NCBI GenBank assembly: GCA_963761305.1
Contig: CAVXGK010000002.1
Location: 2,176,001-2,240,000, forward strand
DNA from: an uncultured Gemmatimonadaceae bacterium
GTDB lineage: Bacteria > Gemmatimonadota > Gemmatimonadetes > Gemmatimonadales > Gemmatimonadaceae
Reading direction: 5' to 3'
DNA length: 64,000 nucleotides
The notes under the pieces are model-generated. The model searched no databases, was not told the DNA's origin, and saw only the letters and a list, made by a program, of their open reading frames with translations. The translations under genes were made by a program, and so were the position numbers. Of the stretch, positions 2,842-56,602 are shown one piece after another (positions within the stretch are counted from its first letter, which is position 1; each line of letters starts with the position of its first letter).

Positions 2842-2887
2842 GTTAGAGGAAACTAGACGACAGGTGGGCGGGCGGACACCCGTCCAC

Positions 2888-3571
2888 CTACTTTTTCGGC
2901 ACCGTCAACGTTCGAATCTCAACGCGATGCACGAGCACGGACGGTGGGGTTGCGATGATCGACGCCACGGCGTCGGCGACGTCGTGCGCGGCGAGGGCCC
3001 AGCTCGAATTGTCACGTTCCGAGAACGACGTCGACACGGAGCCCGGGTTCACCACCGACACCTTCACCCCGTAGTCGCGCAGCTCCAGCATCAGCGATTC
3101 GGCGAAGCTGTTGGCGGCGGCCTTGGTCGCGGCGTAGGCCGTGCCACCGGCAAATGGACTTCGCCCGGTGATCGATCCGATCACCACGACATGGCCGGAT
3201 CGCCGCTCGACCATGGCCGGCACGACCGCGCGCGTGACGTCGAACAGCGCGTTGAAGTTGAGGTCGACCATTTGCATCCATTGCTCGCGCGTCAGCTCGA
3301 GCAGCGGCTTCAGGACGCCCATCCCGGCGTTGTTGACGAGAACCTGGGCGTCGATTCCGGTCAGGGACGACTCGACCGCGCGATTGTCCGTGATGTCGAT
3401 CGGGATGGGCCGGCACGAACCGCCGGCCGCCTCGATTTCCTTGCCGAGCGAATCCAGCTGATCCGCCGACCGCGCCACGGCGACGATGTCATACTCCGTG
3501 GCCAGCCGTTTGGCGACCGCTCGGCCGATGCCGCGAGATGCTCCCGTGACGACCGCGATCGGTTTGGGCAT
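2888..3571 (-). CDS. Short-chain dehydrogenase/reductase
   Basis: TGASRGIG, NNAG and YAATK (YxxxK) motifs. Confidence 0.93.
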   Translation of the reverse strand: MPKPIAVVTGASRGIGRAVAKRLATEYDIVAVARSADQLDSLGKEIEAAGGSCRPIPIDITDNRAVESSLTGIDAQVLVNNAGMGVLKPLLELTREQWMQMVDLNFNALFDVTRAVVPAMVERRSGHVVVIGSITGRSPFAGGTAYAATKAAANSFAESLMLELRDYGVKVSVVNPGSVSTSFSERDNSSWALAAHDVADAVASIIATPPSVLVHRVEIRTLTVPKK

Positions 3572-3602
3572 GTGAAGAATCTACGGCCAACGCGACCAGG
3601 TA

Positions 3603-4163
3603 CTACTTCGGCCAGAGGAGCACAAACGTCTCGGCGGTGATCGCCGCGTAGATGAAACCATCGATGGTCGCTTTCAACGTGGTCATCCACGGCCGGCGAT
3701 ACCAGATCGACATCTGCCAGAGCGCGAACGCGTAGCCCATGAACGCGGTCAGGCCGACAGTGTGGAAGATCGTGTGATGCTCAGCCGGCGGCGTGATCGC
3801 CCGAAACGCGATGTGTCCGGCGAAGTACGAGACGACGATCGAGTACACGAACCATAGCCCGAGGGTCTTCCCCATCGGCATCATGCCGTTCGGCATCATG
3901 TTGAGGATGAACACCGGCCCGCGATTGGCGCGCTCGAGAAACTCGGGTGACCGCAGCGCCGCTCGGCTCGCCGGGCGCGGAACGAAGTACTCCCCGGTCG
4001 GAATTCCCAGCGGACGCAGCGCATCCATCACGGCGTCCTCGTTCGCCAGGCGCGGGTAGTCGTTCTTGTGCCAGGGCAGCAGCATGTGAACGATCGAGCT
4101 CACCACGAAGACGGCGACGGCAGAGACAAGAATCGGCAGCCACATCGACGCGATCCCGAACAT
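3603..4163 (-). CDS. Hypothetical membrane protein
   Basis: About four hydrophobic segments; GGAG upstream of ATG. Confidence 0.75.
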   Translation of the reverse strand: MFGIASMWLPILVSAVAVFVVSSIVHMLLPWHKNDYPRLANEDAVMDALRPLGIPTGEYFVPRPASRAALRSPEFLERANRGPVFILNMMPNGMMPMGKTLGLWFVYSIVVSYFAGHIAFRAITPPAEHHTIFHTVGLTAFMGYAFALWQMSIWYRRPWMTTLKATIDGFIYAAITAETFVLLWPK

Positions 4164-4208
4164 GAGCGGCTCCGGCGTTGAGGGTTTTCTCTCCCGGCCC
4201 GGTTGAAG

Positions 4209-5714
4209 CTAACTCAACATTCGCTCGATGGAGCGCAGCAGCGGACCGAATGAGAGTCCCTTGCCCGCGACGCGCTCCGCCTGCTCGTGCGCCAACTCGC
4301 GCTGGCCTTCGCCGAACATCGCTGAGCAGATCCACGGGCCGGCGCGCGGATTCCGCCACCAGTCCACGTCGTAGCGCTCGACGAGCGTCTCGTTGAGCAA
4401 CGCCTGCAGCTGCCAGGCGCGCAGGTAGCGCGCCGAGTAGAAGCGCGGGTCGACGTCGACGAACGCGTCGGCGCGCCCGTAGCGGAACGTCGTGGCCGCC
4501 GTGAGCCGGTCGACGTAGACGTCGGGCAGCGACTCCCAGCTCGTCGTGCCGCCGTACAACTCCAGCTCGTAGACGAGCTTCGCGCTGTAGCGCCGGAGGA
4601 AGTGCAGCTCCTCGAATCCGATCGACCGCATGAAGGCGGGAAGGTCCTTCGCGCTCAGCTCCGTGTATCGCGCCAGCCATCCGCTGTCCTGCATGCGGTG
4701 GTCGAACAACATGGCGTAGCCTTCGGTGATCGAGTTGTCGCCGAGCCACCGGTACTCGAACGGCAGGTCGGGCTGCATGTACGCGAAGTGCAGCGCGTGG
4801 CCGAGCTCGTGGAGAAAGGTCATCCAGTCGCTCTGGCCGCCGTGCGGCCGCATCACCAGATACACCTCGTTGGGCACGCGCACGGCCGAGCAGAACGCGC
4901 GGGACCGTTTCCCTTCCCGCTCGCCGGTGTCGAGCGTGATGCGTCCCGCGGCGAGCGGATCGACGCCCATCTCCTTCACCTGGCGCCGAATCGATTCTTC
5001 CATGCGCGCCGCCGGGAACGACGCGTCGAACGACTTCGCGCGGAGCATCGCCGCGGCGTCGGCCCGCGTCAGCTCGCTCGGCGACATGCCGAGCACGCGG
5101 CGCGAGAACTCGGGCAGCACTTCGCGCCACATGTCGTCGGTGTCGCGCAGAAAACCCTGGCACGCCGCGGCCAGGTCGACGAGCGACACGCCGCTCAACA
5201 GCTCGAACGTCTCGACGTAGTCGCCGAGACCGAGTCCTTCGACGATGTCGCGCTCGTGCTGAAAACGCTCGAGGCGCATCGGCGCCAGCTCGGCGCTCAC
5301 CAACGTGTTGCGCGCCGCTTCGATCGCGTGGCGAGTCTTCGCGTCGCGCTCGTTCCCCAGCTCGATCGCCACCGCCTGGAACTGCAACTGGCGCGTGTCG
5401 CTGACGTTCACGACCGCCGTGCCTTCCCAGTTGATCTCACGCTCGTCCTGCGCGGCGAGCTGTCGTGAGCTTTGCGATTCGGCCTGCCAGTCGAGCAGCA
5501 GGCGCGTCGCGCGTCGGTCTTCGCTGGCCTCGGGCGCTGCGAGGAACGCCTCGCGCGTGAGTTGAAACGCCTCGTCGCCGAGAATCGCCGCGTGCTTCGC
5601 GTAGACGGGCTGCAGCTCGGGCGACTGCTTCTGGCCGGAATAGGCCAGATAGTATTCGCGCGAGATTTCCTCCATGAAGACCTCGCCGTCGCGGCGAAGC
5701 CGATCGAGCGACAT
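4209..5714 (-). CDS. M3-like zinc metallopeptidase (oligoendopeptidase family)
   Basis: HELGH plus downstream EGYAMLF and GKRSRAFC motifs; true start at ATG 5714 or GTG 5720 (the latter coupled to the glyQS stop). Confidence 0.78.
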   Translation of the reverse strand: MSLDRLRRDGEVFMEEISREYYLAYSGQKQSPELQPVYAKHAAILGDEAFQLTREAFLAAPEASEDRRATRLLLDWQAESQSSRQLAAQDEREINWEGTAVVNVSDTRQLQFQAVAIELGNERDAKTRHAIEAARNTLVSAELAPMRLERFQHERDIVEGLGLGDYVETFELLSGVSLVDLAAACQGFLRDTDDMWREVLPEFSRRVLGMSPSELTRADAAAMLRAKSFDASFPAARMEESIRRQVKEMGVDPLAAGRITLDTGEREGKRSRAFCSAVRVPNEVYLVMRPHGGQSDWMTFLHELGHALHFAYMQPDLPFEYRWLGDNSITEGYAMLFDHRMQDSGWLARYTELSAKDLPAFMRSIGFEELHFLRRYSAKLVYELELYGGTTSWESLPDVYVDRLTAATTFRYGRADAFVDVDPRFYSARYLRAWQLQALLNETLVERYDVDWWRNPRAGPWICSAMFGEGQRELAHEQAERVAGKGLSFGPLLRSIERMLS

Positions 5715-5716
5715 CG

Positions 5717-7090
<1,374 letters not shown>

Positions 7091-7216
7091 TGTGTGGTGA
7101 GCGGGATCGGGCGCGAAGACCAGAAACCGAAATTAGCGAGGCCTGACGGGGGGCGCTGATTCGGGAGGCGAGGCCGCGCTCGCCGAGGAGAACCCCCGGC
7201 GGTCTGATCGATTGTC

Positions 7217-7245
7217 TTGACACTTGTATGGCATACATGTACATT
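7217..7245 (+). promoter_or_regulatory. Sigma70 promoter of the TA operon, overlapped by palindromic operators
   Basis: TTGACA-17 nt-TACATT; palindromes TGTATG-G-CATACA (7225-7237) and ATGTACAT (7237-7244). Confidence 0.75.
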
Positions 7246-7272
7246 ATACGTGTACGCGTCAGTGAGCAACGC

Positions 7273-7632
7273 ATGTCATCATCGTCTAAACGGGTCCGCG
7301 AACAGGCGGTCGTCTACCTCGGCCAGCGGGATCGCGCCCTGCTCGAGAATCTGGCCAAAGAGACCGGCCTCTCCCGGACCGAACTCTTCCGCCGAGGGCT
7401 CTGGGCACTCGCCGCACAGACGTTCGGCGGCAGGCAGTCGTCGGCGCTGGAGTACCTCATCACCAACGCCAGCGATGCCCAGGTGCCGCCGGACCTTTCC
7501 GAGCGCGCCGACGACTATCTCTACGGCGGCGGCTACGACGCGCGGGTCGTGCACGAAGGCGAGACGGAAGCGCAAGACGCCAGGCCCGCGCCGCGAAAAC
7601 GAAAGGCGGCCAAGCGTGCGCGTCCTCGTTGA
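7273..7632 (+). CDS. Ribbon-helix-helix (CopG-like) antitoxin, VapB-type
   Basis: AVVYLGQRDRALLENLAKETGLSRTELFRRGL is an RHH pattern; overlaps the downstream PIN gene. Confidence 0.8.
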   Translation: MSSSSKRVREQAVVYLGQRDRALLENLAKETGLSRTELFRRGLWALAAQTFGGRQSSALEYLITNASDAQVPPDLSERADDYLYGGGYDARVVHEGETEAQDARPAPRKRKAAKRARPR

Positions 7633-8023
7633 CACGAGTGCGCTCCTCGCGCTCGCCTACGCGCGAGACCAGTGGCACGCGCGAGCGACCCGCGCCGCAC
7701 GCGCGAACGCGTCGTCGGGCGTGCGCTACGTCGGCACCACCTTCGTCCTCGGCGAGTTCCACGCACACCTCCTCTACCTGCGTGGTCCGGTCGAGGCGCG
7801 CGAGGCGATCACGCGGCTCACCGCCGATCCGACTCACGAGTGGGTCGGGGTGGACGCCGACCTCGTGCAACACGCGACGGCGCGCTGGCTCGCGCGCTTT
7901 CCCGATCAGCGCTTTTCGCTCGCCGACGCGGTGAGCTTCGAGATCATGCGACGCGAGCGCATCACCCACGCGTTCGCGTTCGACAAACACTTCGAGACCG
8001 CGGGCTTCGCTCTCGTGGAATGA
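7616..8023 (+). CDS. vapC: PIN-domain toxin (VapC family)
   Basis: GTG start; VLVDTSALLAL...FSLADAVSFEIM...AFAFDKHFETAGF. Confidence 0.9.
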   Translation: MRVLVDTSALLALAYARDQWHARATRAARANASSGVRYVGTTFVLGEFHAHLLYLRGPVEAREAITRLTADPTHEWVGVDADLVQHATARWLARFPDQRFSLADAVSFEIMRRERITHAFAFDKHFETAGFALVE

Positions 8024-8056
8024 CGTTCTATCGCTGTGGAATGACGTTCTATCGCT
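8015..8056. repeat. Perfect 21-bp tandem duplication GTGGAATGACGTTCTATCGCT spanning the vapC stop
   Basis: Copies at 8015-8035 and 8036-8056. Confidence 0.95.
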
Positions 8057-8072
8057 ATTGAAGAAAATGTCA

Positions 8073-8181
8073 ACGCAGATGACGCAGATTTGAAAAGAGA
8101 TTTCCGCAGATGCAATGGGGGGAGCCACGACCTCCGAGGCCGTATCTGCGGCATTGCTGTTCAGATCTGCGTTATCTGCGT
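8073..8181. repeat. REP/MITE-like palindromic element, copy 1 (GCAGAT family)
   Basis: ~38-nt imperfect inverted arms, each with three GCAGAT/ATCTGC units; homologous to 28834-28946. Confidence 0.85.
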
Positions 8182-8228
8182 CCGACTTTCTACCCCCACA
8201 GCGTGGCCCGAGCCGGCGAGCGAACGAT

Positions 8229-10529: not shown

Positions 10530-10560
10530 TGCGGGGAGGCCTTGAGGGGAAGTCGCGGGC

Positions 10561-11190: not shown

Positions 11191-11195
11191 CCGGC

Positions 11196-19161: not shown

Positions 19162-20685
19162 ATGAAGCTCGTCGAGTGCGTTCCGAATTTTTCCGAGGGC
19201 CGCCGGCCCGAGGTCGTCGCCGCCATCCGTGACGCGATCGCGGGCGTCGAGAGCGTCGCGATCCTCGACGCCTCGTCCGACGCGTCGCACAACCGCACGG
19301 TGGTCACGTTCGTCGTCGCCGTGGAGCACGCGGTGGACGCGGCGTTCGCCGGCATTCGCGCGGCCCGCGAGCGGATCGACCTCAACTCGCACAGCGGCGA
19401 ACATCCGCGCATGGGCGCCACCGACGTCGTGCCGTTCGTGCCGCTCGAAGGCTCGACGATGGAGGACTGCATCGTTCTCGCGCGGCAGCTCGGCGAGCGC
19501 GTTGGCAAAGAACTCGAGATCCCCGTCTTCCTATATGAGCGCGCCGCCACGCGACCCGATCGCGAGAACCTTGCCGACATTCGCCGCGGCGAGTTCGAGG
19601 GCATTCGCGACGAGATGAAAGCCGGCGCGGCGAATCGCGCGCCCGACTTCGGCCCGTCGACGATTCATCCCACGGCGGGCGCCGTCGCGATCGGCGCACG
19701 GCCGTTTCTCGTCGCGTACAACGTGTACTTGGGCCCCGCGTCGAACTTGCAAGTCGCGAGGAACGTGGCGAAGGCGGTGCGCGGGTCCTCCGGCGGTCTC
19801 CGTTACGTGAAGGGCCTCGGCCTCGAGGTCGACGGTCAGGCGCAGGTGTCGATGAACCTCGTCGACACGGAAAAGACGCCGCTCTATCGCGCCTACGAAA
19901 CGGTGAAGATGGAGGCCGAGGCGCAGGGCGTGTCGCCCACGTGGAGTGAGATCGTGGGCGTCGTGCCCGAGCGCGCGCTGTTCGAGACCGCGGCACGGCA
20001 CATCCAGCTGCGCGATTTCAAGCCGGAGATCGTGCTCGAGCACAAGGTGCGCGCCGCCGTGCAAGGCGGCGAGTCCGTGTCGGGCTTCGTCGCGTCGGTC
20101 GCGTCGTCGGCGCCGACGCCTGGCGGCGGAAGCGTCGCCGCGCACGCCGGTGCGCTCGCCGCCGCGCTCGCGCAGATGGTCGCCGGACTCACGGCGGGCC
20201 GAAAGAAGTACGTCGCGGTAGACGCCGAGATGCGCGCACTGGGTCTTGAGGCGGCGGGGCTCGTCAACACGCTCTCGGCGCTTGTCGTGAAGGACGCGGC
20301 GTCGTTCAACGCCGTGTCGGCCGCGTACAAGCTCCCGTCCGAGCCCGACGACGCGCTCGTCAAACGCAAGCGCGCCATCGACGATGCCCTGATCGGCGCG
20401 GCGGAAGTTCCGCTGGAGACGGCGCGCGCCTGCGCGCGGGTCGCCGAGCTGGCGGCGACGTGCGCGACGAAGGGCAACACGAACGCCGTCTCGGATGCCG
20501 GCGTGTCGGCGCTGCTCGCCGAAGCGGCGTGCCGAGGGGCGGTTTACAACATTCGAATCAACGTGTCGTCGATGGACGACAAATCACGCGGTGCGGAGCT
20601 CCTCTCCGAGGCGAGCGACCTGCTCACCAAGACGCGGACGTACGTCGAGCAAGCCACCTCGGCGGTGGACCAAGCGATCGGCTGA
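19162..20685 (+). CDS. ftcd: Glutamate formimidoyltransferase-cyclodeaminase (bifunctional)
   Basis: MKLVECVPNFSEGRR, HPRMGATDVVPF; C-terminal cyclodeaminase PTPGGGS...GNTNAVSD. Confidence 0.95.
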   Translation: MKLVECVPNFSEGRRPEVVAAIRDAIAGVESVAILDASSDASHNRTVVTFVVAVEHAVDAAFAGIRAARERIDLNSHSGEHPRMGATDVVPFVPLEGSTMEDCIVLARQLGERVGKELEIPVFLYERAATRPDRENLADIRRGEFEGIRDEMKAGAANRAPDFGPSTIHPTAGAVAIGARPFLVAYNVYLGPASNLQVARNVAKAVRGSSGGLRYVKGLGLEVDGQAQVSMNLVDTEKTPLYRAYETVKMEAEAQGVSPTWSEIVGVVPERALFETAARHIQLRDFKPEIVLEHKVRAAVQGGESVSGFVASVASSAPTPGGGSVAAHAGALAAALAQMVAGLTAGRKKYVAVDAEMRALGLEAAGLVNTLSALVVKDAASFNAVSAAYKLPSEPDDALVKRKRAIDDALIGAAEVPLETARACARVAELAATCATKGNTNAVSDAGVSALLAEAACRGAVYNIRINVSSMDDKSRGAELLSEASDLLTKTRTYVEQATSAVDQAIG

Positions 20686-21194: not shown

Positions 21195-21228
21195 GGGTGG
21201 AGGGGTGGACAGGTGGACGGGTGGACAG
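21195..21228. repeat. Degenerate octamer array (4 units) ending 5 nt before ATG 21189
   Basis: GGGTGGAG GGGTGGAC AGGTGGAC GGGTGGAC. Confidence 0.85.
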
Positions 21229-21242: not shown

Positions 21243-22646
21243 CTACTTCTTGCCGGCGACGTCGACCAGCGTGCGATAGATCATCTCCGTGCCTTGCTGG
21301 AGCGACTTGATGCTTACCTTCTCGTCGTTGCCGTGCATGCGCGTCAGCTCGTCGGCGTCGATCGGATAGGGATAGATGCCGTACACCGGCACGCCGCGCG
21401 ACCGCCACGCCGCGGCGTCGGTGCTCGCCTGAAACAGATAGGGCGTCACCTCGGCACCGGGGAACGCGATGTGCGCTTCCTTTTCGAGCGCGCGGTAGAG
21501 CGCCGTCGTGTCGGGAGATTCGGGCGCGGCCGAGTACACGCGATCGCCGATCGAAAACTCGAGCCCCGGATCGCCGGCGATCTTCTTCAACGTCTCGACG
21601 AGCGCCGCCGGATCGCTCCCCGGGACCATACGGATATTGATCATTGCTTGCGCCGATCCGGGAATGACGTTGTTTCGAAATCCGCCGTTGATGATGACCG
21701 GTGCAATCGTGTTGCGAATCAGCGAATGCAGCAGCGGGTCCCGGCTGACGATCGAATCCGCGTGGCGCGCCTTCACCGGATCGCTGCCCACGACGTCTCG
21801 ATAGTAGCCGGACATCGGCGGCGTGCTCGTCTTCGCGAGGGCCAGGAAGAATCGTCTGGTCGACGGCGAGATGGTGAGCGGCGTCTCGTACGCCGAGATC
21901 TTCGCCATCGCTCGTGACAGAGCGAAGATCGCGTTGTCGGGGCGCGGCATCGAGCTGTGCGTCGACGTGCCGCGCGCCGTGATCGTGAGCGGAACCGACA
22001 GCTTGTCCGCCGTCGAGATGCTCACGTAGCGCACGTGCCCGTCGTCCGCCTTCATGATCCAACCGCCCTCGTTCAGCGCGAACTCGGCGTCGATGTCGGA
22101 CCAGCGCTCCTTGGCCAGCCACTCCGTGCTGTACGGACCGCCGCTCTCTTCGTCGGCTTCCGACAAGAAGATCACGTCGCGGGCGAGCGGAACCTTGCGC
22201 TCGGCGAGCATCATCACGGCGCGCACGAAGACCGCCATACCGCCTTTGACGTCGATCGCGCCGCGTCCGTAGACGTAGCCGTCCTTCACGACGCCGGCGA
22301 ACGGATCGACCGACCACTTGTCGCGCTCCACACCGACGACGTCCGCGTGCGCCGCGATCAACACCGGCCGCTTCGACCCGTCGCCGCGCAGCCGCGCGAT
22401 GATGTGCGTCTTCGCCGAGTCCGGCGTCGAGACGATCTTGACGTCGAAGCCGAGTGCGCGAAACCGCGGCGCGAGCACGTCGTCGACGAGCTGCGTGTGT
22501 CCGGGCGGGTTCGATGTATTCGCGCGAATCAACTCGCGAAGCAGTGCGACGGTCGAATCTTCGCCGGTCTGCGCGCCGGCGATCGCCGCGCCGAGCAACA
22601 TCGCCGCGACAATGCACGGCGCACTTCGGGGTATCGATCGGATCAT
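21243..22646 (-). CDS. Secreted M20/M25/M40 family metallohydrolase
   Basis: AHADVV, GRGAIDVKG, ADEESGG and MHGNDE; signal peptide. Confidence 0.92.
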   Translation of the reverse strand: MIRSIPRSAPCIVAAMLLGAAIAGAQTGEDSTVALLRELIRANTSNPPGHTQLVDDVLAPRFRALGFDVKIVSTPDSAKTHIIARLRGDGSKRPVLIAAHADVVGVERDKWSVDPFAGVVKDGYVYGRGAIDVKGGMAVFVRAVMMLAERKVPLARDVIFLSEADEESGGPYSTEWLAKERWSDIDAEFALNEGGWIMKADDGHVRYVSISTADKLSVPLTITARGTSTHSSMPRPDNAIFALSRAMAKISAYETPLTISPSTRRFFLALAKTSTPPMSGYYRDVVGSDPVKARHADSIVSRDPLLHSLIRNTIAPVIINGGFRNNVIPGSAQAMINIRMVPGSDPAALVETLKKIAGDPGLEFSIGDRVYSAAPESPDTTALYRALEKEAHIAFPGAEVTPYLFQASTDAAAWRSRGVPVYGIYPYPIDADELTRMHGNDEKVSIKSLQQGTEMIYRTLVDVAGKK

Positions 22647-22706
22647 GGTGGGGCGGAAGGAGCCGGCGGAGGAGGGCGAAGCCCGCGTCCGACTATCTAC
22701 GCCTCA

Positions 22707-22736
22707 CCCGTCCGCCTGTCCACCCGTCCACCTGTT
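22707..22736. repeat. Degenerate octamer array abutting the stop codon at 22737
   Basis: CCCGTCCG CCTGTCCA CCCGTCCA CCTGTT. Confidence 0.8.
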
Positions 22737-23492
22737 CTACTTGCTCGACAGCTTCGCGTACATGTCCCAGTACACGGCGACCCCGCACCGCTGCCCGGCG
22801 CGCGAATCCCACATGTAGCGCTGGTACTCCTTCGGCACTTCGTCGGGCGTGACGTACACCTCGAGCGCCATCAAATCCCCCGGCAGGTCGGGAACGAAGT
22901 TCGCCGCCGTCGCCGGACGCCCGTCAACCAGCGACACCATGCACTTGAGCCCGGACGCAACTGGAATTCTCCGGTTGCCATTGCGCGTGGGCCGCACGTC
23001 GACGCGAAATCCCGGGATGTCGCGAAAGAGATCAGCCGTGGAGAGAGGGTCCTTGTCGTCGATGTCCATGTAGTCCATGAACACGCCCTTGTCACCGCGT
23101 TTTTGCCGACACACGAATCCATCGAGCGAACGCTCCGGGCAACTGCCGTCGGCGTTGACGACGACCGTGTCGAGGTTGGCCTCACGGTGCTCGAGCGTCA
23201 GCGTCACGTCCAAGGACCCGTTGTCGTGAAGATCGGCCGTCGCTTCACCGGGCGAATAACCGAGCTTGCGCGCATGCAGCACATACTGCCCACCGCCGAC
23301 GCCTGTCATCGTGAAACGGCCGAGCGAGTCGGTGCGCGCATGGTGCGGGCCGGGCGTGGCGACGACCTCGGCGTTGCCGAGCGGGCGATTCGCCGAATCG
23401 CGAACGACGCCCCGCAGAGTGCCGCCCTGGGCGGCAGCTAGCGCCGGAAGCAGGGTCAGCGAAAAGACCAGCGAAGCGACGGGGAAGCGCAT
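22737..23492 (-). CDS. Secreted protein with carboxypeptidase-regulatory-like domain and plug-like C-terminus
   Basis: GTLRGVVRDS...TDSLGRF...ARKLGY; paralogous layout to 37032-37820. Confidence 0.75.
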   Translation of the reverse strand: MRFPVASLVFSLTLLPALAAAQGGTLRGVVRDSANRPLGNAEVVATPGPHHARTDSLGRFTMTGVGGGQYVLHARKLGYSPGEATADLHDNGSLDVTLTLEHREANLDTVVVNADGSCPERSLDGFVCRQKRGDKGVFMDYMDIDDKDPLSTADLFRDIPGFRVDVRPTRNGNRRIPVASGLKCMVSLVDGRPATAANFVPDLPGDLMALEVYVTPDEVPKEYQRYMWDSRAGQRCGVAVYWDMYAKLSSK

Positions 23493-23653: not shown

Positions 23654-25564
23654 ATGAGCATTCGCGAAGATATCGAGTTCCTCGACCAGACCCAACACGA
23701 ATTGGAGTTCCTCGGCGAGGAGCTCGAAGAGACACAAGGCATCGACCGACGCGATTTCGTGTTCTGGTCGCTCGCGACGGCGGCCGCGACCACGTTCGGG
23801 TTCGGTTCGCGCGCCCTCGCGCAGGCGCCGGCGACAGCCGCGGCGGCGAACGCGCCGCAGCAAGCGCCGCTCCCGGAGCTTGGCAACGGCGAGCCCGTGG
23901 CATGGACGTTCCAGCCCTATCACGAGGGCACCGGCGCGCTCATGGAAAAGCTCATCCACGAGCGCGGCGCGGCGGCGTTCCAGCGCGCCACGTTCGTCGT
24001 CGAGCCGTGGACCGGGAAAGTGCCGACTGATCCCACCGAAATCGCGTTTCTCCCCGCGCACCGGCTCTCCGCGCTCATCAAGGCCCGTCACATCACGTCG
24101 ACGCAGCTCACGCGCATCTATCTCGACCGCATCAAGCGGCTCGACCCGACGCTGCTGTGCGCGGTCACGATCATGGAAGACCAGGCGATGGCCGAGGCGG
24201 CCAAGGCCGACACCGACCTCAAGGCCGGCAAGTATCACGGCCCGCTGCACGGCATTCCCTACGGCGTGAAGGATCTCTTCTCGGTGAAAGGCGTGCGCAC
24301 GACGTGGGGCTCGAAGGACTTCGAGAATCGCATCATCGACGAAGACGCCGAGATCGTCGTGCGGCTGCGCAACGCTGGCGCCGTGCTCATCGCCAAGCTG
24401 GCGACGGGACTCTTCGCGCAGGGCGATCAGTGGTATCGCGGACGCACGAACAACCCGTGGGACATTCGCCGCGGGTCGAGCGGGTCGTCGGCCGGCCCCG
24501 CGTCGGCGACGGCGTCGGGATGCGTCGCGTTCGGCATCGGGACGGAAACGTCGGGTTCTATCGTGTCGCCGTCACGGGAGTGCGGATTGAGCTCGCTGCG
24601 CCCGACGTTCGGGCGCGTCACCCGCCATGGCGGGATGGTGCTGGCGTGGTCGCAGGATCGCGTCGGTCCGCTCTGCCGCACGATCGAAGACGCCGCGATG
24701 GTGTTCAACACGATTCACGGCGTCGATCCGAAGGATCCGGGCACGATCACGGTGCCGTTCCACTTCGATCGAAACATCAAGCTCGCGTCGCTGCGCATCG
24801 GCGTCGACGCGAACGCGCCGAAGGAATTCGTCGACAAGCTGCGTGAGCTCGGCGCGACGCCCAAGGAAATCGCCGCGCGTCCCCAACTCGGCGGTGGCGG
24901 CGGCGGTGGAGGACTCGGCGTGGAATCGGCGGCGGCGTTCGATTCCTACGTGCAGTGGAAGGCCAAGGAGCTCGGCATCGACCTGGCGACGATTCCCGAG
25001 CCGCAGGGTCGCGGTGGCGGCCGAGGTTTTGCCGGCGGCGGCGCGGGGCGAGCTGGCGCGGACAGCGGCGCGGTTCGCGTCGCGGGTGCTCCGGCAGGTG
25101 GAGGTGGAGGAGGCGGCGGTGGCGGGGCCGGACGCGGCGACGCGGGGAATCCGACCGGGATGGCGGCGCTCACCCGCTGGACGGGCGGCCGATTCCCGCG
25201 CGCGTTCGACTTCGTGCAACAGCAGCGTCGCCGTCAGATCCTCATCACCCAGATGGCGGCACTGCTCCAGGACTTCGACATGTACGTGCCGAGCGCGAAC
25301 GGGTACGACGTCGGCCTGCACGCGCAGACGGGGCATCCGTGCGCGGTCGTGCCGTACAAGTTCGAGCCGCAGCCGGCCGGTCGCGGTGGTCGTGGTGGCG
25401 GCGGCGGCACGCCGATCGATTCGACGACGCCACCCGTGACCTACAACCCACAGCCGATCTGCACCGTGCTCGCGGGGAATCTGTACAACGACGACAAGAT
25501 TCTCTCGGTCGCGCACCAGTATCAGATTCACACGGACTGGCACACGAAGCATCCATCGCTCTGA
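23654..25564 (+). CDS. Amidase-signature family enzyme, probable Tat substrate
   Basis: GIPYGVKD, GSSGSSAG and GTETSGSIVSP; DRRDF twin-arginine motif. Confidence 0.92.
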   Translation: MSIREDIEFLDQTQHELEFLGEELEETQGIDRRDFVFWSLATAAATTFGFGSRALAQAPATAAAANAPQQAPLPELGNGEPVAWTFQPYHEGTGALMEKLIHERGAAAFQRATFVVEPWTGKVPTDPTEIAFLPAHRLSALIKARHITSTQLTRIYLDRIKRLDPTLLCAVTIMEDQAMAEAAKADTDLKAGKYHGPLHGIPYGVKDLFSVKGVRTTWGSKDFENRIIDEDAEIVVRLRNAGAVLIAKLATGLFAQGDQWYRGRTNNPWDIRRGSSGSSAGPASATASGCVAFGIGTETSGSIVSPSRECGLSSLRPTFGRVTRHGGMVLAWSQDRVGPLCRTIEDAAMVFNTIHGVDPKDPGTITVPFHFDRNIKLASLRIGVDANAPKEFVDKLRELGATPKEIAARPQLGGGGGGGGLGVESAAAFDSYVQWKAKELGIDLATIPEPQGRGGGRGFAGGGAGRAGADSGAVRVAGAPAGGGGGGGGGGAGRGDAGNPTGMAALTRWTGGRFPRAFDFVQQQRRRQILITQMAALLQDFDMYVPSANGYDVGLHAQTGHPCAVVPYKFEPQPAGRGGRGGGGGTPIDSTTPPVTYNPQPICTVLAGNLYNDDKILSVAHQYQIHTDWHTKHPSL

Positions 25565-25572
25565 CGGGTTTT

Positions 25573-25607
25573 CTGTCCAGCCGTCCACCTGTTCACCTGT
25601 CCACCCG
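25573..25607. repeat. Degenerate octamer array before ATG 25610
   Basis: CTGTCCAG CCGTCCAC CTGTTCAC CTGTCCAC CCG. Confidence 0.85.
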
Positions 25608-25609
25608 CC

Positions 25610-26221
25610 ATGCAACGTCGTGATCTGCTCCGGGCGTTCGGCGCCGCGACGGCGCTCGCGATCATTCCGCGCGACGCATTCGCGGCGTGGGAGCGCGTCG
25701 CCAGCGGGATTCGTCCCGCCGCGGGCTTAAGCGACGCGCACCTCGCGCTCGTCGGCGCGGTCGCGGATACGATTCTTCCGCGCACCGACTCGCCGAGCGC
25801 GACCGACGTGAACGTGCCGGCGTTCATCGACGTCATCCTGAGCGAGAACTACACCGACACCGAGCGCACGGCGTTCGTCGCGGGGCTCGACGTGCTCGAT
25901 TCGTGGACGCCGGTTTCGGCGACGCAGCAAGGCGCCGATTCGACGATCGTGCACGTGACGCGCCCGGTGCCGTTCGCCAGCGTCTCCGCCGAGGGTCGCG
26001 CGCAGATTCTCGACGCGATCGAACGAGCGCCGAGTCGGCGCGGCGAACCGATGCGGACGTACTGGCGGCTCAAGGGGCTCGTGATCCACGGCTACTTCAC
26101 GAGCGAGCGCGTGTCGAAGGACGTCCTGCACGTCGAAGTAATGCCGGGCCGCTTCGAGGGCTCGGCGCCGCTCGCGACGAAAGGGGCGAGCTCCTCGTCG
26201 CACGAGATGCACGATGCGTGA
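25610..26221 (+). CDS. Gluconate 2-dehydrogenase subunit 3 family protein (Tat)
   Basis: MQRRDLL, ADTILPRTDSPSA and GYFTSE. Confidence 0.85.
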   Translation: MQRRDLLRAFGAATALAIIPRDAFAAWERVASGIRPAAGLSDAHLALVGAVADTILPRTDSPSATDVNVPAFIDVILSENYTDTERTAFVAGLDVLDSWTPVSATQQGADSTIVHVTRPVPFASVSAEGRAQILDAIERAPSRRGEPMRTYWRLKGLVIHGYFTSERVSKDVLHVEVMPGRFEGSAPLATKGASSSSHEMHDA

Positions 26222-28768: not shown

Positions 28769-28833
28769 ACCGCGATGCCGCCATCGAGGGCGGATCGCGC
28801 CGAGCGAGTCACTGTTGGCAGCGACCAAATTGA

Positions 28834-28946
28834 ACGCACATGCAGCAGATTTGAAAAGCGATTGCCGCAGATGAACGGCGAACGAAGGAGGAGGCAACCT
28901 TCGTTTTCATCTGCGGCATTGTCGTTGAAATCTGCGGCATCTGCGT
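28834..28946. repeat. REP/MITE-like palindromic element, copy 2 (GCAGAT family)
   Basis: Same arms as 8073-8181, with a different central hairpin (AACGAAGG...CCTTCGTT). Confidence 0.85.
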
Positions 28947-29054
28947 CACCTCTTCTTCCACTGCCTCGAGCCCGGTCAAGCGGCTGGAGGCCCGCGCGCG
29001 ATTCGCTTGCCGCCCGGCGCGGCGACAGGCATCTTCAAACGAGAGGTTCACGCG

Positions 29055-29175
29055 GTCCACCTGTCCACCTGTCCACCTGTCCACCTGTCCACCTGTCCAC
29101 CTGTCCACCTGTCCACCTGTCCACCTGTCCACCTGTCCACCTGTCCACCTGTCCACCTGTCCACCTGTCCACCTG
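29055..29175. repeat. (GTCCACCT)x15 tandem array ending 3 nt before the ilvE ATG
   Basis: Direct count of perfect units. Confidence 0.97.
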
Positions 29176-37820: not shown

Positions 37821-37834
37821 ACCGGTCCACCGGT

Positions 37835-38593
37835 TCAGCCGTCCAGCCGCGTCAGTACTCTCGGTCCGTCCTCGGTGATCGCGACCGTGTGCTCGAAATG
37901 CGCCGACAGCGATCCGTCGAGCGTCACGATCGTCCACCGATCCGCGAGCGTCTTCGTCGCCGGTCCGCCGACGTTCACCATCGGCTCGATCGCCAGCGTG
38001 AGGCCCGCCGAGAGGCGCTCGCGCCGCTTGGGCTTGCCATAGTTCGGTACCTGCGGCTCCTCGTGGAATTCGACGCCGATGCCGTGGCCCACCAGATCAC
38101 GCACCACGGTGAATCCCGACTCCTCGACGACGCCCTGCACCGCCGCGCCGATGTCGCCGATGTGATTGCCGACGACCGCCGCGTCGATCCCCGCCGCCAG
38201 TGCCTTCTGCGTGACGTCGAGCAACCGTTGCGCTTCGGTCGAAATCGTGCCGACGGGTACCGTCGTCGCGCTGTCGGTGAAGTAGCCCTTATAGCCGACG
38301 CCGACGTCGAGCGAGATGATGTCGCCCTCTTTGACGACGCGCTTCGGCGACGGAATGCCGTGCACGATCTCGTTGTTCACCGACGCGCAGATGCTGCCCG
38401 GAAATCCGTACAGCCCTTTGAACGCCGGCACCGCGCCCTCGTGGCTCCGGATGAACTGCTCGGCGATCGTGTCGAGCTCGCCCGTCGAGATGCCGGGGCG
38501 CACCGCGCCGCGCAATGTTTCGACGGTCGCGGCGAGAATTTTCCCGCCTTGCGTCATGAGATCGAGCTCGCGGGCCGACTTGAGCTGAATCAC
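37835..38593 (-). CDS. map: Methionine aminopeptidase type I
   Basis: SVNNEIVHGIP, GHGIG, AIEPMVN and SAHFEHT; GTGA overlap with adk. Confidence 0.97.
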   Translation of the reverse strand: MIQLKSARELDLMTQGGKILAATVETLRGAVRPGISTGELDTIAEQFIRSHEGAVPAFKGLYGFPGSICASVNNEIVHGIPSPKRVVKEGDIISLDVGVGYKGYFTDSATTVPVGTISTEAQRLLDVTQKALAAGIDAAVVGNHIGDIGAAVQGVVEESGFTVVRDLVGHGIGVEFHEEPQVPNYGKPKRRERLSAGLTLAIEPMVNVGGPATKTLADRWTIVTLDGSLSAHFEHTVAITEDGPRVLTRLDG

Positions 38594-39228: not shown

Positions 39229-39330
39229 GGTGGCGGAAATGTATGGGGATTCCGGTGCATCCGGGAATGAAAGGATGACGGTCGTTCCGCGCCGGCGAGC
39301 CACCCTATCGGTCGGCTCTCGGAACTACTC

Positions 39331-39773
39331 AACGCAGAGGCGCGGAGGCGCGGAGAACGACCATGAGGGAATTGAACGACATCAGTGGTGAGATCGTCGA
39401 CGGGTCCGTGCGGGTTCATTCGGCACTCGGCCCCGGATTGCTCGAGAGCGCCTACCAGACATGCCTTGCGTACGAGCTTCGAGAGCGCGGGCTGTTCGTT
39501 CGCACGCAGGTGCCACTCCCAGTCGTGTACCGAGGCATCGAACTGTCAGTCGGCTACAGAGTTGATCTTCTCGTCGATGACGCCGTCATGGCGGAGCTCA
39601 AAACCGTCCCAAACATCCTACCGGTCCATGAAGGCCAACTTCTCACATACCTCAAGATGAGCGATCGTCGACTGGGCCTGCTCCTCAACTTCCATGTTCC
39701 GCCGATGCGAGACGGCATCAAGCGCCTCGTAAACAAATTCTAATGTTTCTCTGCGACTCCGCGTCTCCGCGGT
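39331..39773 (+). mobile_element. Candidate element: GxxExxY gene framed by 27-bp imperfect inverted repeats
   Basis: Arms 39331-39357 and 39747-39773 match 22/27; each is three CGC(A/G)GAG-N octamers; inserted antisense between secY and adk. Confidence 0.55.
39363..39743 (+). CDS. GxxExxY family PD-(D/E)xK nuclease-fold protein
   Basis: LGPGLLESAY, RVDLLVD...AELK, QLLTYLK and GLLLNF. Confidence 0.95.
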   Translation: MRELNDISGEIVDGSVRVHSALGPGLLESAYQTCLAYELRERGLFVRTQVPLPVVYRGIELSVGYRVDLLVDDAVMAELKTVPNILPVHEGQLLTYLKMSDRRLGLLLNFHVPPMRDGIKRLVNKF

Positions 39774-39795
39774 AAAGCTGTTCACGACGCGCCAC

Positions 39796-44286: not shown

Positions 44287-44331
44287 CCGGTCTACCGGTC
44301 TACCGGTCTACCGGTCTACCGGTCTACCGGT
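44287..44331. repeat. (CCGGTCTA)x5 array just after the rpsN stop
   Basis: Direct count; reads GGTAGACC on the sense strand, a variant of the GGTGGAC family. Confidence 0.93.
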
Positions 44332-47039: not shown

Positions 47040-47163
47040 GTGATCGTTCCTCGCTTCGGCGCTTCCGCACCTCCGCTCGGAATTCTCCATCCAGCCGTCT
47101 TCGTGATCGTTCCTCGCTTCGACGCTTCGCGCCTCCGCTCGGACTTCTCCATCAAGCCGTCTT
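47040..47163. repeat. ~62-bp imperfect tandem duplication filling the rpsC-rplP spacer
   Basis: Units 47040-47101 and 47103-47163 (GTGATCGTTCCTCGCTTCG...AGCCGTCTT). Confidence 0.92.
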
Positions 47164-49392: not shown

Positions 49393-49411
49393 TGGTTGGT
49401 GTGCTCGCTGC

Positions 49412-49708
49412 TCAGGCTTCGAAGACGTGCTCGATCGAATCGCCCTCGCGGAGCGTCACGATCGCTTTCTTCCAGTCGGGGCGGCGTCCCACGACACGGG
49501 TCGCGCCCAGGCGCTTGTCCTTACCGCGGACGTTCATCGTCCAGATGCCGGTGACCTTCACGCCGAACAGCTGCTCGATGGCCGCGCGAATCTGCGTCTT
49601 GGTCGCGTCGCGATGCACTTCGAACGCGTACTCACCGCGATGCTGATAAGCGGCCGAGGTCTTCTCGGTGATCAGCGGCCGCACGATGGTGCGATGGAGG
49701 GTGGGCAT
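49412..49708 (-). CDS. rplW: 50S ribosomal protein L23
   Basis: PLITEK and WKKAIVTL. Confidence 0.97.
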
Positions 49709-49711
49709 CGG

Positions 49712-50566: not shown

Positions 50567-50583
50567 GAGAGTTCTCGAGTGCC

Positions 50584-51267: not shown

Positions 51268-51447
51268 ATCTCGATCATTCCTGAGTTAGTCGCTGCGGGC
51301 CGCTTGGCCTGAAGCAGTTGGACTGTGGAATAGGCTGCTGTAGTTGTCAGCGGCAGCGGCTGTCGTCAGTGCCCGCCGCCTGTTGCCGCCGCTGCCGACT
51401 AGAGTGACTCTCAGTCAACCAATCCCCATTGGTGCGCTTTCGCCTGC

Positions 51448-51756
51448 CTACTCCACCTTGATTTCGACGTCCACGCCGGCCGGCAGGTCCAGCTTCGTCA
51501 GCGCGTCGACCGTCTGGGCGCGCGAGTCGAGGATGTCGATTACGCGCTTGTGCGTCTTGAGCTCGAACTGCTCTCGCGACTTCTTGTCGACGTGCGGCGA
51601 CCGCAGCACAGTCCATCGCTGCGTCTTGGTGGGCAGCGGAATCGGGCCCGACACCTGCGCGCCCGTCTTCTCCGCCGTCCGCACGATGTCCGCCGACGCT
51701 TGATCGATCACCGCGTGATCGAACGCCTTGAGACGAATGCGAATTCTGCCAGCCAT
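51448..51756 (-). CDS. rpsJ: 30S ribosomal protein S10
   Basis: [10 protein letters not shown] and [12 protein letters not shown]. Confidence 0.98.
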
Positions 51757-51832
51757 TGGGTTTCTCGCTGAGTGACTGTCGCTAACGATTGTCGCTGACG
51801 ACTGGAGTCCCAGCCGTCAGCGACGATCGTAT

Positions 51833-53035
<1,203 letters not shown>

Positions 53036-53073
53036 TGAACTGATCCCTATTGGATTAAGAGTTCTCTCGCCTG

Positions 53074-55170
53074 CTACGCTTTCACTTTCGCGACGATTTC
53101 TTCGGCCTTGCTCTTCGGCACCTCATCATAGTGCGCGAATTCCATCGAGTACACTGCGCGGCCCTGCGACATCGAGCGCAACCGTGTGGAGTACCCGAAC
53201 ATCTCCTCGAGAGGCACCGTCGCGGCGATCACCTGCGCTTCGCCCCGCTGTGTCATCCCGCCGATCTTGCCGCGACGCGCCGAGAGATCGCCCAGCACGT
53301 CGCCCATGAACGCATCGGGCGTCACCACTTCGACGTTCATCAGCGGCTCCAGCAGCACCGGATGGGCGCGCTTCGCCGCCTCCTTGTACGCCATCGAGCC
53401 CGCGATCTTGAACGCCATTTCGCTCGAATCGACGTCGTGGTACGACCCGTACACGAGCTCGACCTTCACGTCGACCATCGGATAGCCCGCCAACACGCCG
53501 TTCTCGAGCGCTTCCTTGATGCCCTGCTCGACCGGCGCGATGTATTCGCGCGGGATCACGCCGCCGACGATCTTGTCCTCGAAGAGGAAGCCGGCGCCAG
53601 GCTCCGACGGCTCCATGTTGATGACGACATGGCCGTACTGGCCCTTGCCGCCCGACTGCCGGATGAACTTCCCTTCGACCTTCTCGACGCGCTTCCGGAT
53701 CGTCTCGCGGAACGCGACCTGCGGGCGACCGATGTTCGCGTCGACCTTGAACTCGCGCTGCATGCGGTCGACGATGATCTCCAGGTGCAACTCGCCCATC
53801 CCCGAGATGATCGTCTGAGCCGTCTCCTCGTCCGTGTGAACGCGGAACGTCGGGTCTTCTTCCGACAACTTCGCCAGCGCGATGCCGAGCTTGTCCTGAT
53901 CCGCCTTCGTCTTCGGCTCGATGGCGACGTCGATGACGGGATTCGGGAACTTCATCGCCTCGAGGATGATCGGATGATCATCGTCGCACAGCGTGTCGCC
54001 CGTGCGCGTGTCGCGGAGGCCGATCGCGGCGGCGATGTCGCCGGCGCGCACTTCCTCGATCTCCTCGCGCTTGTTGGCGTGCATCTGCAAGAGACGACCG
54101 ACGCGCTCGCGCTTGTCCTTCGTCGAGTTGTAGACGTACGAGCCCGACTCCAACACGCCGGAGTAGACGCGGAAGAACGTCAGTTTTCCGACGAACGGAT
54201 CGGTGGCGATCTTGAACGCCAGCGCCGCGAACGGCGTCTCGTCCGAGACCGGACGCTCGGCGCGATGCTCGTCGTGGTGCGGGAGATGGCCTTCGATCGC
54301 CTTCACGTCCACCGGCGCGGGGAGATAGTCAATCACCGCGTCGAGCAGCGCCTGGACGCCCTTGTTCTTGAACGAGGCGCCGCAGAGCACGGGAACCATC
54401 TTGCCGGCGACCGTCGCCTTGCGAATCGCGCTGCGGATCTCCTCGCAGCTCAGCTCTTCGCCGTTCAAGTACTTCTCCATCACGCTGTCGTCGTTGGCGA
54501 CGGCGTGGTCGATCAGATCGTGACGCGCGCGTTCGACGCGCTCGCGATACTCGGCCGGCACCTCGACGACGTCGAACTTTTTGCCAAGCGACTCGTCGTC
54601 GAAGATGTACTGTTTGCGTTCGATGACGTCGATGTGGCCCGTGAACAGCTCACCGGATCCGACCGGGAGCTGCAACGGAAACGCGTCCTTCGAAAGCCGG
54701 TCGCGGATCATCGTCATGCACCGATCGAAGTCGGCGCCGACGCGGTCCATCTTGTTGGCGAAGATCAGGCGCGGTACGCCGTAGCGGTCGGCCTGTCGCC
54801 ACACGGTCTCCGTCTGCGGCTCGACGCCGGCGACGGAATCGAGCAGCGTCACGGCGCCGTCGAGCACGCGGAGCGAACGCTCGACCTCGACGGTGAAGTC
54901 GACGTGGCCGGGCGTGTCGATGATGTTGATGCGGTACTCGATACCGTTGCGCGTCCAGAACGCGGTCGTCGCGGCAGACGTGATCGTGATGCCGCGCTCC
55001 TGCTCCTGCTCCATCCAATCCATCGTCGCGGTGCCTTCATGCACCTCGCCGATCTTGTGCGCCTTTCCGGTATAGTAGAGGATGCGCTCGGTCGTAGTCG
55101 TCTTACCGGCATCAATGTGGGCCATGATGCCGATATTCCGATAATGTTCGAGCGGTGTTTCGCGGGCCAT
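53074..55170 (-). CDS. fusA: Elongation factor G
   Basis: [23 protein letters not shown] and GMGELHL. Confidence 0.99.
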
Positions 55171-55556
55171 ATGAAGTCAGTTCAGCGAATTCGAAGTCGA
55201 GTCAGTTGGTACTGCGGAAAACGGTCGTGCGATATCCACCAGCAAAAACGCGGGTGGACCGGTCCCCTCGAGAGGGCGGTATCCATCCGCAGTCGCCGGG
55301 TACACTCGCCGCTGCTGCGCGAGTGGGGACCCAAGGCGCGCCCGTCCCGACTATCCGCCGCGACGCCGTCAGACCCAGCGGGTCGCAAACTCGGGATGAA
55401 CGTCAGATTTTCCTGCGTCGCTTTTCGGGAGCCGGCGCACTCACTCGAGTACGTCGACCGGAGCAGACCCCTGCGTCATGCAGGCCCATAAGAGTCGGCG
55501 CGCAGCTCGCCGATGCAACTCGCGGGGTTGGGGCCTAAGCGCCCAAGACCCGGAGC
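55171..55556 (-). ncRNA. Candidate long structured 5' leader of fusA with terminator-like hairpin
   Basis: Several predicted stems; hairpin 55249-55290 followed by GTTTTT; lies downstream of a sigma70-like promoter. Confidence 0.4.
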
Positions 55557-55562
55557 CCTTTT

Positions 55563-55590
55563 AAGTTATCGAGGGTTCGTCGCGTGTCAA
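55563..55590 (-). promoter_or_regulatory. Sigma70-like promoter for fusA-tuf-S10
   Basis: Minus strand TTGACA-16 nt-TAACTT. Confidence 0.65.
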
Positions 55591-55874
55591 CGGAGTGAGT
55601 GGGCTCGCGTTGAGAAGCCCCGCGGGCGATCGCGCCGCCCGAGCCAGCGGCGACCACGATCCACCAGGCGTTTTCCAGGGTTCTCGGGGCCAACTCGACG
55701 GCAGTCGAGCCCGGCAAAAGATAGTCCGTTTGCCCCCCGCCTAGGCCTTTGGACCAACTTGCGCGCCCGCGTCTTGCACTTTTGGTCGCCGCACTGGCTC
55801 TCTCGAGCCTCGTGGCGCGGCGCTCCATGGTCGCGACGCGACCTCATGAACAACTGAACATTCGGAGCAACCCG

Positions 55875-56291
55875 ATGCGAATACATACATTGGTCATAGC
55901 AGGCGCGATCGCTGCCATCGCAGTCACAGCGGGCTCGGCGCGCGCCCAGGAGCCGGACCACCCAAGCACCCCCAAGAAAGTGGGCGCGGCGGTGCACCAC
56001 ACGCTCAAGAAGACGGGCAATGCGACCAAACGGGACGTGAAAAAAGTCGGTAGCGCGACGCACCAGGTCCTGAAAAAGAGCGGCAACAAGGTGAAGACTG
56101 TGGGTGGGGAGGTAACTGGCATCCACAAGGTCGGTGGAACCGTCGGCAATGCGGCGCAGTCAGTCAGCCGAACGGGCAAGTCGGTCGGCCGGACGGCCAA
56201 GCACGACTTGAAGTCGACCAAGGCCGGCGTCCACCACGGCCTGCAGACGGCTGGTGATTCGACCAAGGCGGCCATCAAGAAGCCGGAGTAA
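55875..56291 (+). CDS. Secreted basic protein with 11-residue repeats (paralog A)
   Basis: GGAG SD; signal peptide MRIHTLVIAGAIAAIAVTAGSARA; KKxG-anchored 11-mers. Confidence 0.8.
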   Translation: MRIHTLVIAGAIAAIAVTAGSARAQEPDHPSTPKKVGAAVHHTLKKTGNATKRDVKKVGSATHQVLKKSGNKVKTVGGEVTGIHKVGGTVGNAAQSVSRTGKSVGRTAKHDLKSTKAGVHHGLQTAGDSTKAAIKKPE

Positions 56292-56314
56292 CGAAGCAAT
56301 CCGCTCGGTGAACC

Positions 56315-56344
56315 GAACCCTCCGCAGAGCATCGCGGAGGGTTC
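56315..56344 (+). terminator. Hairpin after paralog A
   Basis: GAACCCTCCGC-8-GCGGAGGGTTC. Confidence 0.55.
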
Positions 56345-56364
56345 CGTCGTATGGCGGAGTATTT

Positions 56365-56602
56365 GGTGGACCGGTGGACCGGTGGACCGGTGGACCGGTG
56401 AACCTGTGGACGGAAGAGACCGAGCTCGGCGCGGGCTTCCGACATCAATCCGTTGCGCTCAACTTGGACGCCCAAGCGTCCGCCGACCTGAACGGCCTGT
56501 CCACCTGTCCACCTGTCCACCTGTCCACCTGTCCACCTGTCCACCTGTCCACCTGTCCACCTGTCCACCTGTCCACCTGTCCACCTGTCCGCCCGTCCAC
56601 CC
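56365..56602. repeat. Inverted pair of octamer arrays: (GGTGGACC)x4+ ... (CCTGTCCA)x11+ running into the GTG start
   Basis: Arrays at 56365-56412 and 56496-56602, ~83-nt spacer. Confidence 0.93.

Follow-up and report, generated by a model that had tools for sequence, protein, structure and literature searches.

Octamer arrays of the window

The DNA considered here, the window, is a stretch of 64,000 nucleotides from an uncultured soil bacterium of the Gemmatimonadaceae (assembly GCA_963761305.1, contig CAVXGK010000002.1). It corresponds to C2:2176001-2240000 of a genome, G000, of 5.2 Mb with 66% GC and a completeness of 93%, the S3 protein of which falls, at 90% identity, into one cluster with proteins that bear the name Gemmatimonadaceae. 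Spacers of the window, next to such genes as rpsN and map, contain tandem arrays of an octamer made of GTCCACC and one variable base, which reads GGTGGAC on the other, G-rich strand. An initial annotation had pointed to nine sites of this family and to a rule of polarity, with GTCCACC before start codons and GGTGGAC after stop codons. All nine are indeed there, one of them (2858-2890) in degenerate form (Table 1). Our subject is this rule, its extension to the genome, and the tie of the arrays to a gene coding for a small four-helix-bundle (4HB) protein, which may direct their placement. Genes were called with our own hexamer model (4332 in G000), their starts being less certain than their stops.

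Table 1. Arrays and related elements of the window; gaps to start codons are measured from the last full octamer unit
Position	Strand	Element	Neighbourhood
2858-2890	.	Degenerate, collapsed outward pair	G-rich remnant and one exact GTCCACC unit on the stop of 2888(-); hairpin z -4.25
21196-21226	-	Solo arm, 4 units	CCACC end 6 nt from start 21189(-)
22710-22732	+	Solo arm, 3 units	4 nt from stop of 22737(-)
25575-25605	+	Solo arm, 4 units	4 nt before start 25610
28775-29050	.	Gene-less inverted element, GxxExxY-type arm family	Inside octamer arm; likeness to GxxExxY arms judged by eye
29055-29173	+	Solo arm, 15 units	5 nt before start 29179
37825-37847	+	Arm, 3 units	Convergent junction; overlaps stop and last codons of map (37835-)
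39326-39775	+	GxxExxY gene 39363-39743 (TIGR04256, PF13366) with inverted arms	Between secY and adk; arm unit of ACGCAGAG type
44290-44328	+	Arm, 5 GTCTACC units	After rpsN stop (44337-), gap 8 nt; faces older degenerate heptamer arm
56365-56411	-	G-rich arm, 6 units, left of outward pair	73 nt past stop 56291, behind hairpin
56499-56601	+	C-rich arm, 13 units, right of outward pair	1 nt before start 56603

These sites differ in what relatives of G000 show at the same place. The degenerate pair, missed by the array caller, corresponds to full arrays in three of them (G005, G017 and G024). The arm at 21196-21226 is also present in G015, while five other relatives have no octamer array there. 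The long arm at 29055-29173 is represented by two units in G005 and by none in five others. Two arrays, at 21196 and 25575, also make contacts in the wrong orientation, 16 and 10 nt respectively after a stop. A scan of the window with Rfam gave no match.

Polarity at gene ends

In G000 we found 274 arrays of at least two GTCYACC(N) units, or 255 once neighbours were merged, against three two-unit runs and none longer in a fifth-order Markov control of 2.6 Mb, half the size of the genome. The most frequent length is four units (84 of 255 arrays), that is 32-39 nt. Setting aside 49 arrays that overlap a called gene leaves 206 intergenic ones for a test of the rule. Taking contact as a distance of at most 10 nt from the end of an open reading frame (ORF), 113 arrays make it by the CCACC end alone and 7 by the opposite end alone; 10 do so with both ends and 76 with neither. 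The asymmetry is seen in tandem (66 against 5), convergent (37 against 1) and divergent spacers (10 against 1), and the 123 CCACC ends so placed compare with 36.5 expected under uniform placement. A control restricted to the stops of long, GC3-rich ORFs keeps it, with 78 compliant contacts against 13. The same units stand at orthologous sites in independently assembled relatives, which argues against an assembly artefact.

The orientation of arrays with respect to gene ends is thus not random, and what had been read from nine sites is a property of the genome (113 against 7). It is not strict, as had been claimed: 17 contacts within 10 nt break it, 14 of them with stops and 3 with starts, and no bias is seen among arrays that lie over 30 nt away from both neighbours (30 of 54). 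Compliant contacts are far commoner at stops (93) than at starts (30). Array pairs less than 200 nt apart are outward in 32 cases, inward in none and in the same direction in one. What looks like two rules, one for starts (preceded by GTCCACC) and one for stops (followed by GGTGGAC), reduces to one of geometry: arms point outward, with their CCACC end toward the adjacent gene. That the rule is geometric, rather than one of sense strand, is seen at the 4HB and GxxExxY genes themselves, relative to which the orientation is opposite to the sense-strand rule. In the mapped spacers of the relatives, informative cases were too few for a tally of polarity. Nineteen G000 arrays, in both orientations, lie well inside called ORFs; they may be in-frame insertions or errors of gene calling.

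Start codons, stop codons and base pairing

Another suggestion of the initial annotation was that the arrays act on RNA, AGGTGG resembling a Shine-Dalgarno (SD) sequence and CCACCT its complement, so that arrays at the 5' and 3' ends of a gene could pair. We rejected an SD role for the G-rich arm, which touches a start in three cases only, the AGGTGG variant being a minority of units (139 of 900). We likewise rejected pairing around genes or gene runs, for want of any excess: 2 genes combine a C-rich arm ahead of the start with a G-rich one past the stop, for 1.2 expected, and the same order over runs of genes on one strand is found 4 times for 2.7 expected (p=0.28). An SD-like motif precedes 1 of 38 armed starts against 1205 of 4294 other starts, so that the arm stands in the position of the SD sequence. 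At 25575-25605 relatives have a spacer of 17-22 nt with a purine-rich SD-like run; there (25564-25610 in the window), as at C2:2587996, the arm takes the place of a short SD-like spacer seen in relatives. Arms also run into the C-termini of proteins, with 16 G-rich against 3 C-rich overlaps on the sense strand.

The cognate gene and its arms

A small gene flanked by the octamer, the existence of which had been anticipated, was found on the other contig of G000, at C1:1510581. It codes for a 4HB protein, and the two sides of the gene carry 24 G-rich and 4 C-rich octamer units. The outer ends of these arms abut the stop codons of the host genes, exactly as dispersed arrays do. The gene lies in the loop of a long RNA stem predicted to be formed by the arms (z -8.5). 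It belongs to the PF05635 family (93.7 bits; its G017 ortholog scores 104.5 bits with TIGR02436, for a cut-off of 24), and the predicted fold is best matched by Xcc0516 (2GSC), with 2GSC and 2RLD, of five chains each, as top matches. In G000 there are ten profile matches to PF05635 and six to PF13366, and most 4HB genes that we examined by eye lie between inverted arrays, each of its own unit, including units devoid of G-runs.

Intact orthologs of 120 amino acids, 80-84% identical, are bracketed by the same arms in G005, G017, G019 and G022, while the ortholog of G015 (74% identity) has arms of a variant unit. Paralogs of about 60% identity, in G017, G022 and G024, have arms of an allied octamer. 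There is one ortholog per genome in six genomes, and the protein tree roughly tracks the species tree, with modest support. Octamer arrays of at least three units occur in 8 of 24 genomes of the same genus and in 0 of 16 from other families, and the five relatives richest in arrays are the five that carry the ortholog.

Two other 4HB genes deserve mention. In G004, outside the clade, a truncated 4HB (locus L126), 68-70% identical to the cognate protein, lies among GTCCACC arrays on one contig; this is either a second occurrence or contamination. A divergent 4HB gene of G000 (locus L133, C2:2381396-2381806), the place of which is the same in four genomes, behaves much as a host gene, and its start is abutted by arms of three different families in different lineages. 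Outward octamer arms can also hold small ordinary genes, in the geometry of a cargo, at C1:1486779-1487113 and C2:1323853-1324187 (YhbY-like and CPXCG-motif proteins by eye).

The cassette, that is the 4HB gene with its arms, occupies one locus in G005, G017 and G019, another in G000 and yet another in G015. In G022 the upstream flank matches none of these loci, the downstream flank being cut by the end of a contig. This allows for a comparison of filled and empty sites. At three cassette sites, the empty orthologs within the clade carry the octamer in the same polarity in 3 of 4, 2 of 4 and 4 of 6 cases; these 9 of 14, one of which is a single degenerate unit, come from kin genomes and overstate independence. 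The background of G000 is 179 armed spacers of 4330, or 42 of 687 for convergent ones. Solo arrays and cassette arms are nonetheless clearly the same object.

Turnover of arrays between relatives

The spacer that follows rpsN carries a tandem of 7- or 8-mers in 16 of 21 genomes, against 44 of 554 background spacers, and its unit varies by lineage. In G000 and G024 the left arm alone consists of the octamer, the right arm being an older heptamer.

A finer comparison was made between G005 and G017, over about 0.4 Mb of each and for G005 arrays of at least three units. Thirty of the 31 arrays could be anchored in G017, where 15 were shared, 2 were reduced to one unit and 13 were absent, one of these absences being an edge artefact. 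At 11 of the 12 true absences the position is taken in G017 by the allied octamer, as it is in the outgroup G024 at 9 of those 11 sites (both by eye). Conversely, of 19 G017 arrays that could be anchored in G005, 17 are shared. The allied 4HB gene was found in G017, G022 and G024, and not in G005, G019, G015 or G000. Three-unit matches of the allied octamer number 78 in G022, 71 in G024 and 29 in G017; there are 31 in G019, 12 in G005 and none in G015 or G000. Because 11 of 12 differing sites have the allied octamer in the sister genome, and the allied 4HB gene is found in that sister only, arms were likely overwritten in trans. In the cases examined, unit swaps follow the 4HB complement of the genome. 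The octamer cassette itself stayed put in both G005 and G017, so that these changes needed no hop, unless a copy was made and then cleanly lost. Re-occupied sites keep their position, and at times their length and phase too (C2:2255523).

How the arrays may arise

Comparative data favour active deposition, the other role that had been contemplated in place of one at the RNA level. We propose that the arrays are dispersed copies of the outward arms that bracket one 4HB gene, and that they are written and overwritten in trans at the edges of spacers in a way that depends on the 4HB protein, a reading of genome sequences to which we give an even chance. The protein probably forms a pentameric ring, as in a solved homolog; this we infer from the five chains of 2GSC and 2RLD and from the title of Lin et al. 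(2006), a reference in PMC10053308. Such a ring might bind four to five tandem units, which would explain the length mode of 32-39 nt. A precedent is Avd, all five protomers of which contact a single RNA stem-loop in the complex of diversity-generating retroelements (DGR; 10.1101/2023.10.23.563531). Having no catalytic domain, the 4HB protein would promote a gene-conversion-like process, in which repair enzymes of the host copy arms into the ends of spacers. Each new arm would replace dispensable neighbouring DNA until a selected element is met (stop, start, promoter or leader RNA), which would account for the tight adjacency of arms to genes. Selection as the outer boundary fits both the arms found in dispensable C-termini (16 against 3) and isolated examples in which an arm stops at a promoter or leader. 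The full cassette would enter an armed site only rarely.

Several observations weigh against this proposal. The allied octamer is present where no allied 4HB gene was found, in G019, the exception with its 31 matches, and in G005 (12 matches). Conversely, G024, which is 61% complete, has 16 GTCCACC matches and no ortholog that we could find. In G015 the variant unit of the cassette is found at two loci only, yet the genome holds 176 GTCCACC matches; moreover, the variant sits at the cassette site of sister lineages, as would better fit footprints of a moving cassette. The co-occurrence of protein and unit concerns one clade of seven genomes, which are kin and not independent. The 4HB gene of G000 is frameshifted near its end, be it a real change or an assembly error. 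Confidence in the structure model of the 4HB protein is moderate (pLDDT 71), and the match of this model to Avd is weak (E 0.24). Other 7/8-mer arrays of G000 show a weak bias only (30 against 18, p=0.11). A -35-like motif just outside the arm, finally, is found in 6 of 50 cases (control 3.9%), a weak signal, with clear single examples in the fusA region of relatives and at C2:2327303 in G005.

Footprints of a hopping cassette are the foremost alternative: arm, 4HB gene and arm would land together in a spacer and lose their interior by deletion, for instance through the palindromic ACCGGT present in both arms. The variety of cassette loci in the clade, the solo arms at empty orthologs (9 of 14), fused junctions of G-rich and C-rich arms, a heptamer element common to 10 of 32 pair interiors and above all the rare variant of G015, at a locus filled in its sisters, speak for it. 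Yet orphan arrays retain no remnant of an interior: a profile of five cassette interiors, run against 255 inner flanks, matches only the cassette's own two arms (next best E 0.21), and we rejected passive decay of cassettes on this ground. In relatives, no 4HB cargo was apparent in any of 28 orthologous spacers from beyond the window (by eye, long spacers being viewed at their ends only). Arms are mostly solo, the opposite unit being found on the inner side of 6 of 153 single arms, and G005 and G017 differ at many sites in spite of a common cassette locus. We hold this explanation to be unlikely. Copying of whole arm pairs as one unit was rejected too. The majority variable base is shared by the paired arms in 11 of 32 cases (p=0.33), and shared inner elements are limited to the 10-member group already cited and to another of two members. 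Arms of other families lie inside octamer arms in 11, 8 and 7 of 209 cases, and outside them in 0, 0 and 1.

Selected regulatory sites make a second alternative, in our view a distinctly unlikely one. Arrays would be binding sites of the 4HB protein on mRNA ends and translation starts, converted by mutation and slippage when the protein changes. Re-occupation at the same position, at times in the same length and phase (C2:2255523), the genus-wide persistence of an arm site after rpsN, and starts without SD motifs, as reported for TAACTGA by MacGregor (2015; PMC4679880), go in this direction. Avd, for its part, binds RNA. Arms after stops and arms before starts, however, are complementary on the mRNA, and a specificity for single strands cannot read both. 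Many orthologous spacers are entirely devoid of an arm, genes or gene runs with both arms are not in excess, and swaps from heptamer to octamer are hard to achieve via point changes.

Simple repeats independent of any protein, born by slippage and filtered for orientation by selection or by G-quadruplex (G4) formation, with the 4HB gene as a bystander, are very improbable: the GG tracts of the octamer, the same rule and four-unit mode in G4-forming heptamers (PMC4692102) and the Xanthomonas and Moorena arm pairs devoid of a 4HB gene (0 of 4 and 0 of 15) are in their favour, but most 4HB genes examined carry inverted arms of their own unit, also where it has no G-runs, units track the relatedness of the proteins, 15 of 37 GGGAATC pairs enclose a 4HB gene, and slippage leaves the presence of one unit at 255 sites, as well as swaps in place, without explanation. 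A RAYT transposase or a linked reverse transcriptase as the engine was rejected: no Y1 transposase (PF01797) was found in G000, at 93% completeness, and its single reverse transcriptase, group II intron-like by eye, is at C1:821086, about 690 kb from the 4HB cassette.

Relation to known repeats

The polarity rule has been published before, for heptamers of Xanthomonas, Nostoc and Beggiatoa. What is new here is the evidence for turnover in place and in trans, and the tie to the GGGAATC family. Rehm et al. (2015; PMC4692102) described the rule for the GGGAATC heptamer of Xanthomonas and for heptamers of Nostoc, with a four-unit mode and frequent inverted pairs, in intergenic repeats of unknown function which they interpreted as G4 elements. 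The octamer shares with them the place of the G-rich strand (coding after stops, non-coding before starts), the four-unit mode and the inverted pairs. It differs by its 8-nt unit with GG rather than GGG tracts, and by a cognate 4HB cassette and unit swaps in place, where no linked gene is named for the heptamers; the main text of PMC4692102 mentions neither helix bundle nor 23S nor XCC0516. MacGregor (2015) reported TAACTGA arrays in Beggiatoaceae, cyanobacteria and Bacteroidetes, placed before starts mostly without SD. Like the octamer, they are short tandem arrays that end a few bases before SD-poor start codons, but they are mostly at starts and were read as sites of a translational regulator, whereas the octamer is mostly at stops. 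The main text of PMC4679880 has no mention of a helix bundle.

REPIN-RAYT systems (PMC8049555) have in common with the octamer hundreds of extragenic copies, inverted pairs with a diverse spacer and one largely vertical cognate gene, in single copy, as is the 4HB ortholog of six genomes. Their arms are palindromes, whereas here they are tandem octamer runs; singlets dominate, with 64 of 255 arrays in close pairs and the variable base of paired arms not shared. The 4HB gene itself relocates, and its product has no catalytic domain. The intervening-sequence proteins of 23S rRNA (PF05635, TIGR02436; Xcc0516, 2GSC) and the Avd protein of DGR, a homolog of PF05635 (PMC10053308), are of the same family or fold as the 4HB protein. 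Octamer cassettes, by contrast, lie between protein genes and not in rRNA, and no reverse transcriptase is linked to the 4HB gene.

The GGGAATC heptamer was then scanned for in species-representative genomes, as outward arm pairs with a gap of about 420-480 nt. A 4HB gene is enclosed by 15 of the 37 pairs, or 15 of 22 outside Moorena, in several phyla and including Lysobacterales relatives of Xanthomonas; it is enclosed by none of the 15 pairs of Moorena and none of the 4 of Xanthomonas. At three Xanthomonas loci (L191, L192 and L196) a low-complexity open frame contains an outward GGGAATC pair or is surrounded by one, with no 4HB gene. A literature search found no paper that links 4HB proteins to such repeats, subscription journals and supplements, including the repeat tables of PMC4692102, being outside its coverage.

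Could this extend beyond one clade? A non-catalytic ring protein would be the specificity factor of a genome-wide rewriting of repeats, each 4HB variant writing its own unit of 7-8 nt at the edges of genes and overwriting arms left by lost variants. Here would lie the general origin of oriented heptamer and octamer repeats in bacteria, GGGAATC included. We put forward this generalization tentatively, giving it somewhat less than an even chance.

Other features of the window

The GxxExxY gene, found in the spacer between secY and adk in 8 of 19 genomes (TIGR04256, 132.7 bits for a cut-off of 35), had been noted for an arm-gene-arm geometry similar to that of the octamer. The layout is the same, but the unit is of another type and the family a separate one, and on account of these arms we rejected the gene as the cognate of the octamer. 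In close relatives where its match is unbroken, the protein shows only 62-73% identity, for 96-97% in secY, and it is broken in G022 and G024; this suggests repeated replacement or relaxed selection. Gene-less elements similar to that of 28775-29050 come and go in relatives at 20685 and 22620-22737.

Between the rpsC stop and rplP, two tandem copies of 62 nt (47040-47163) are present as 0, 1 or 2 copies in relatives; elsewhere G000 has only two more copies, both partial. The region 55513-56291 lies between fusA and the peptidase S51 gene in G000 only, and in six relatives the gene of 55980-56291 is on the other side of S51. A tRNA-Ser called by ARAGORN at 56964-57040, inside the peptidase S51 ORF, is probably false. 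Finally, a pair of small genes at 7273-8023, the second with a PIN domain, is a possible toxin-antitoxin pair.

Significance

The arms remodel the regions of translation start and the C-termini of proteins at a few percent of the genes. The clade offers a natural test pair in two 4HB paralogs that share about 60% identity and have an octamer each; their arms replace one another at the same sites. If true, our proposal would join the origin of oriented intergenic repeats of 7-8 nt with the role of the widespread 4HB (S23/Avd-like) proteins, both of which could be put to test.

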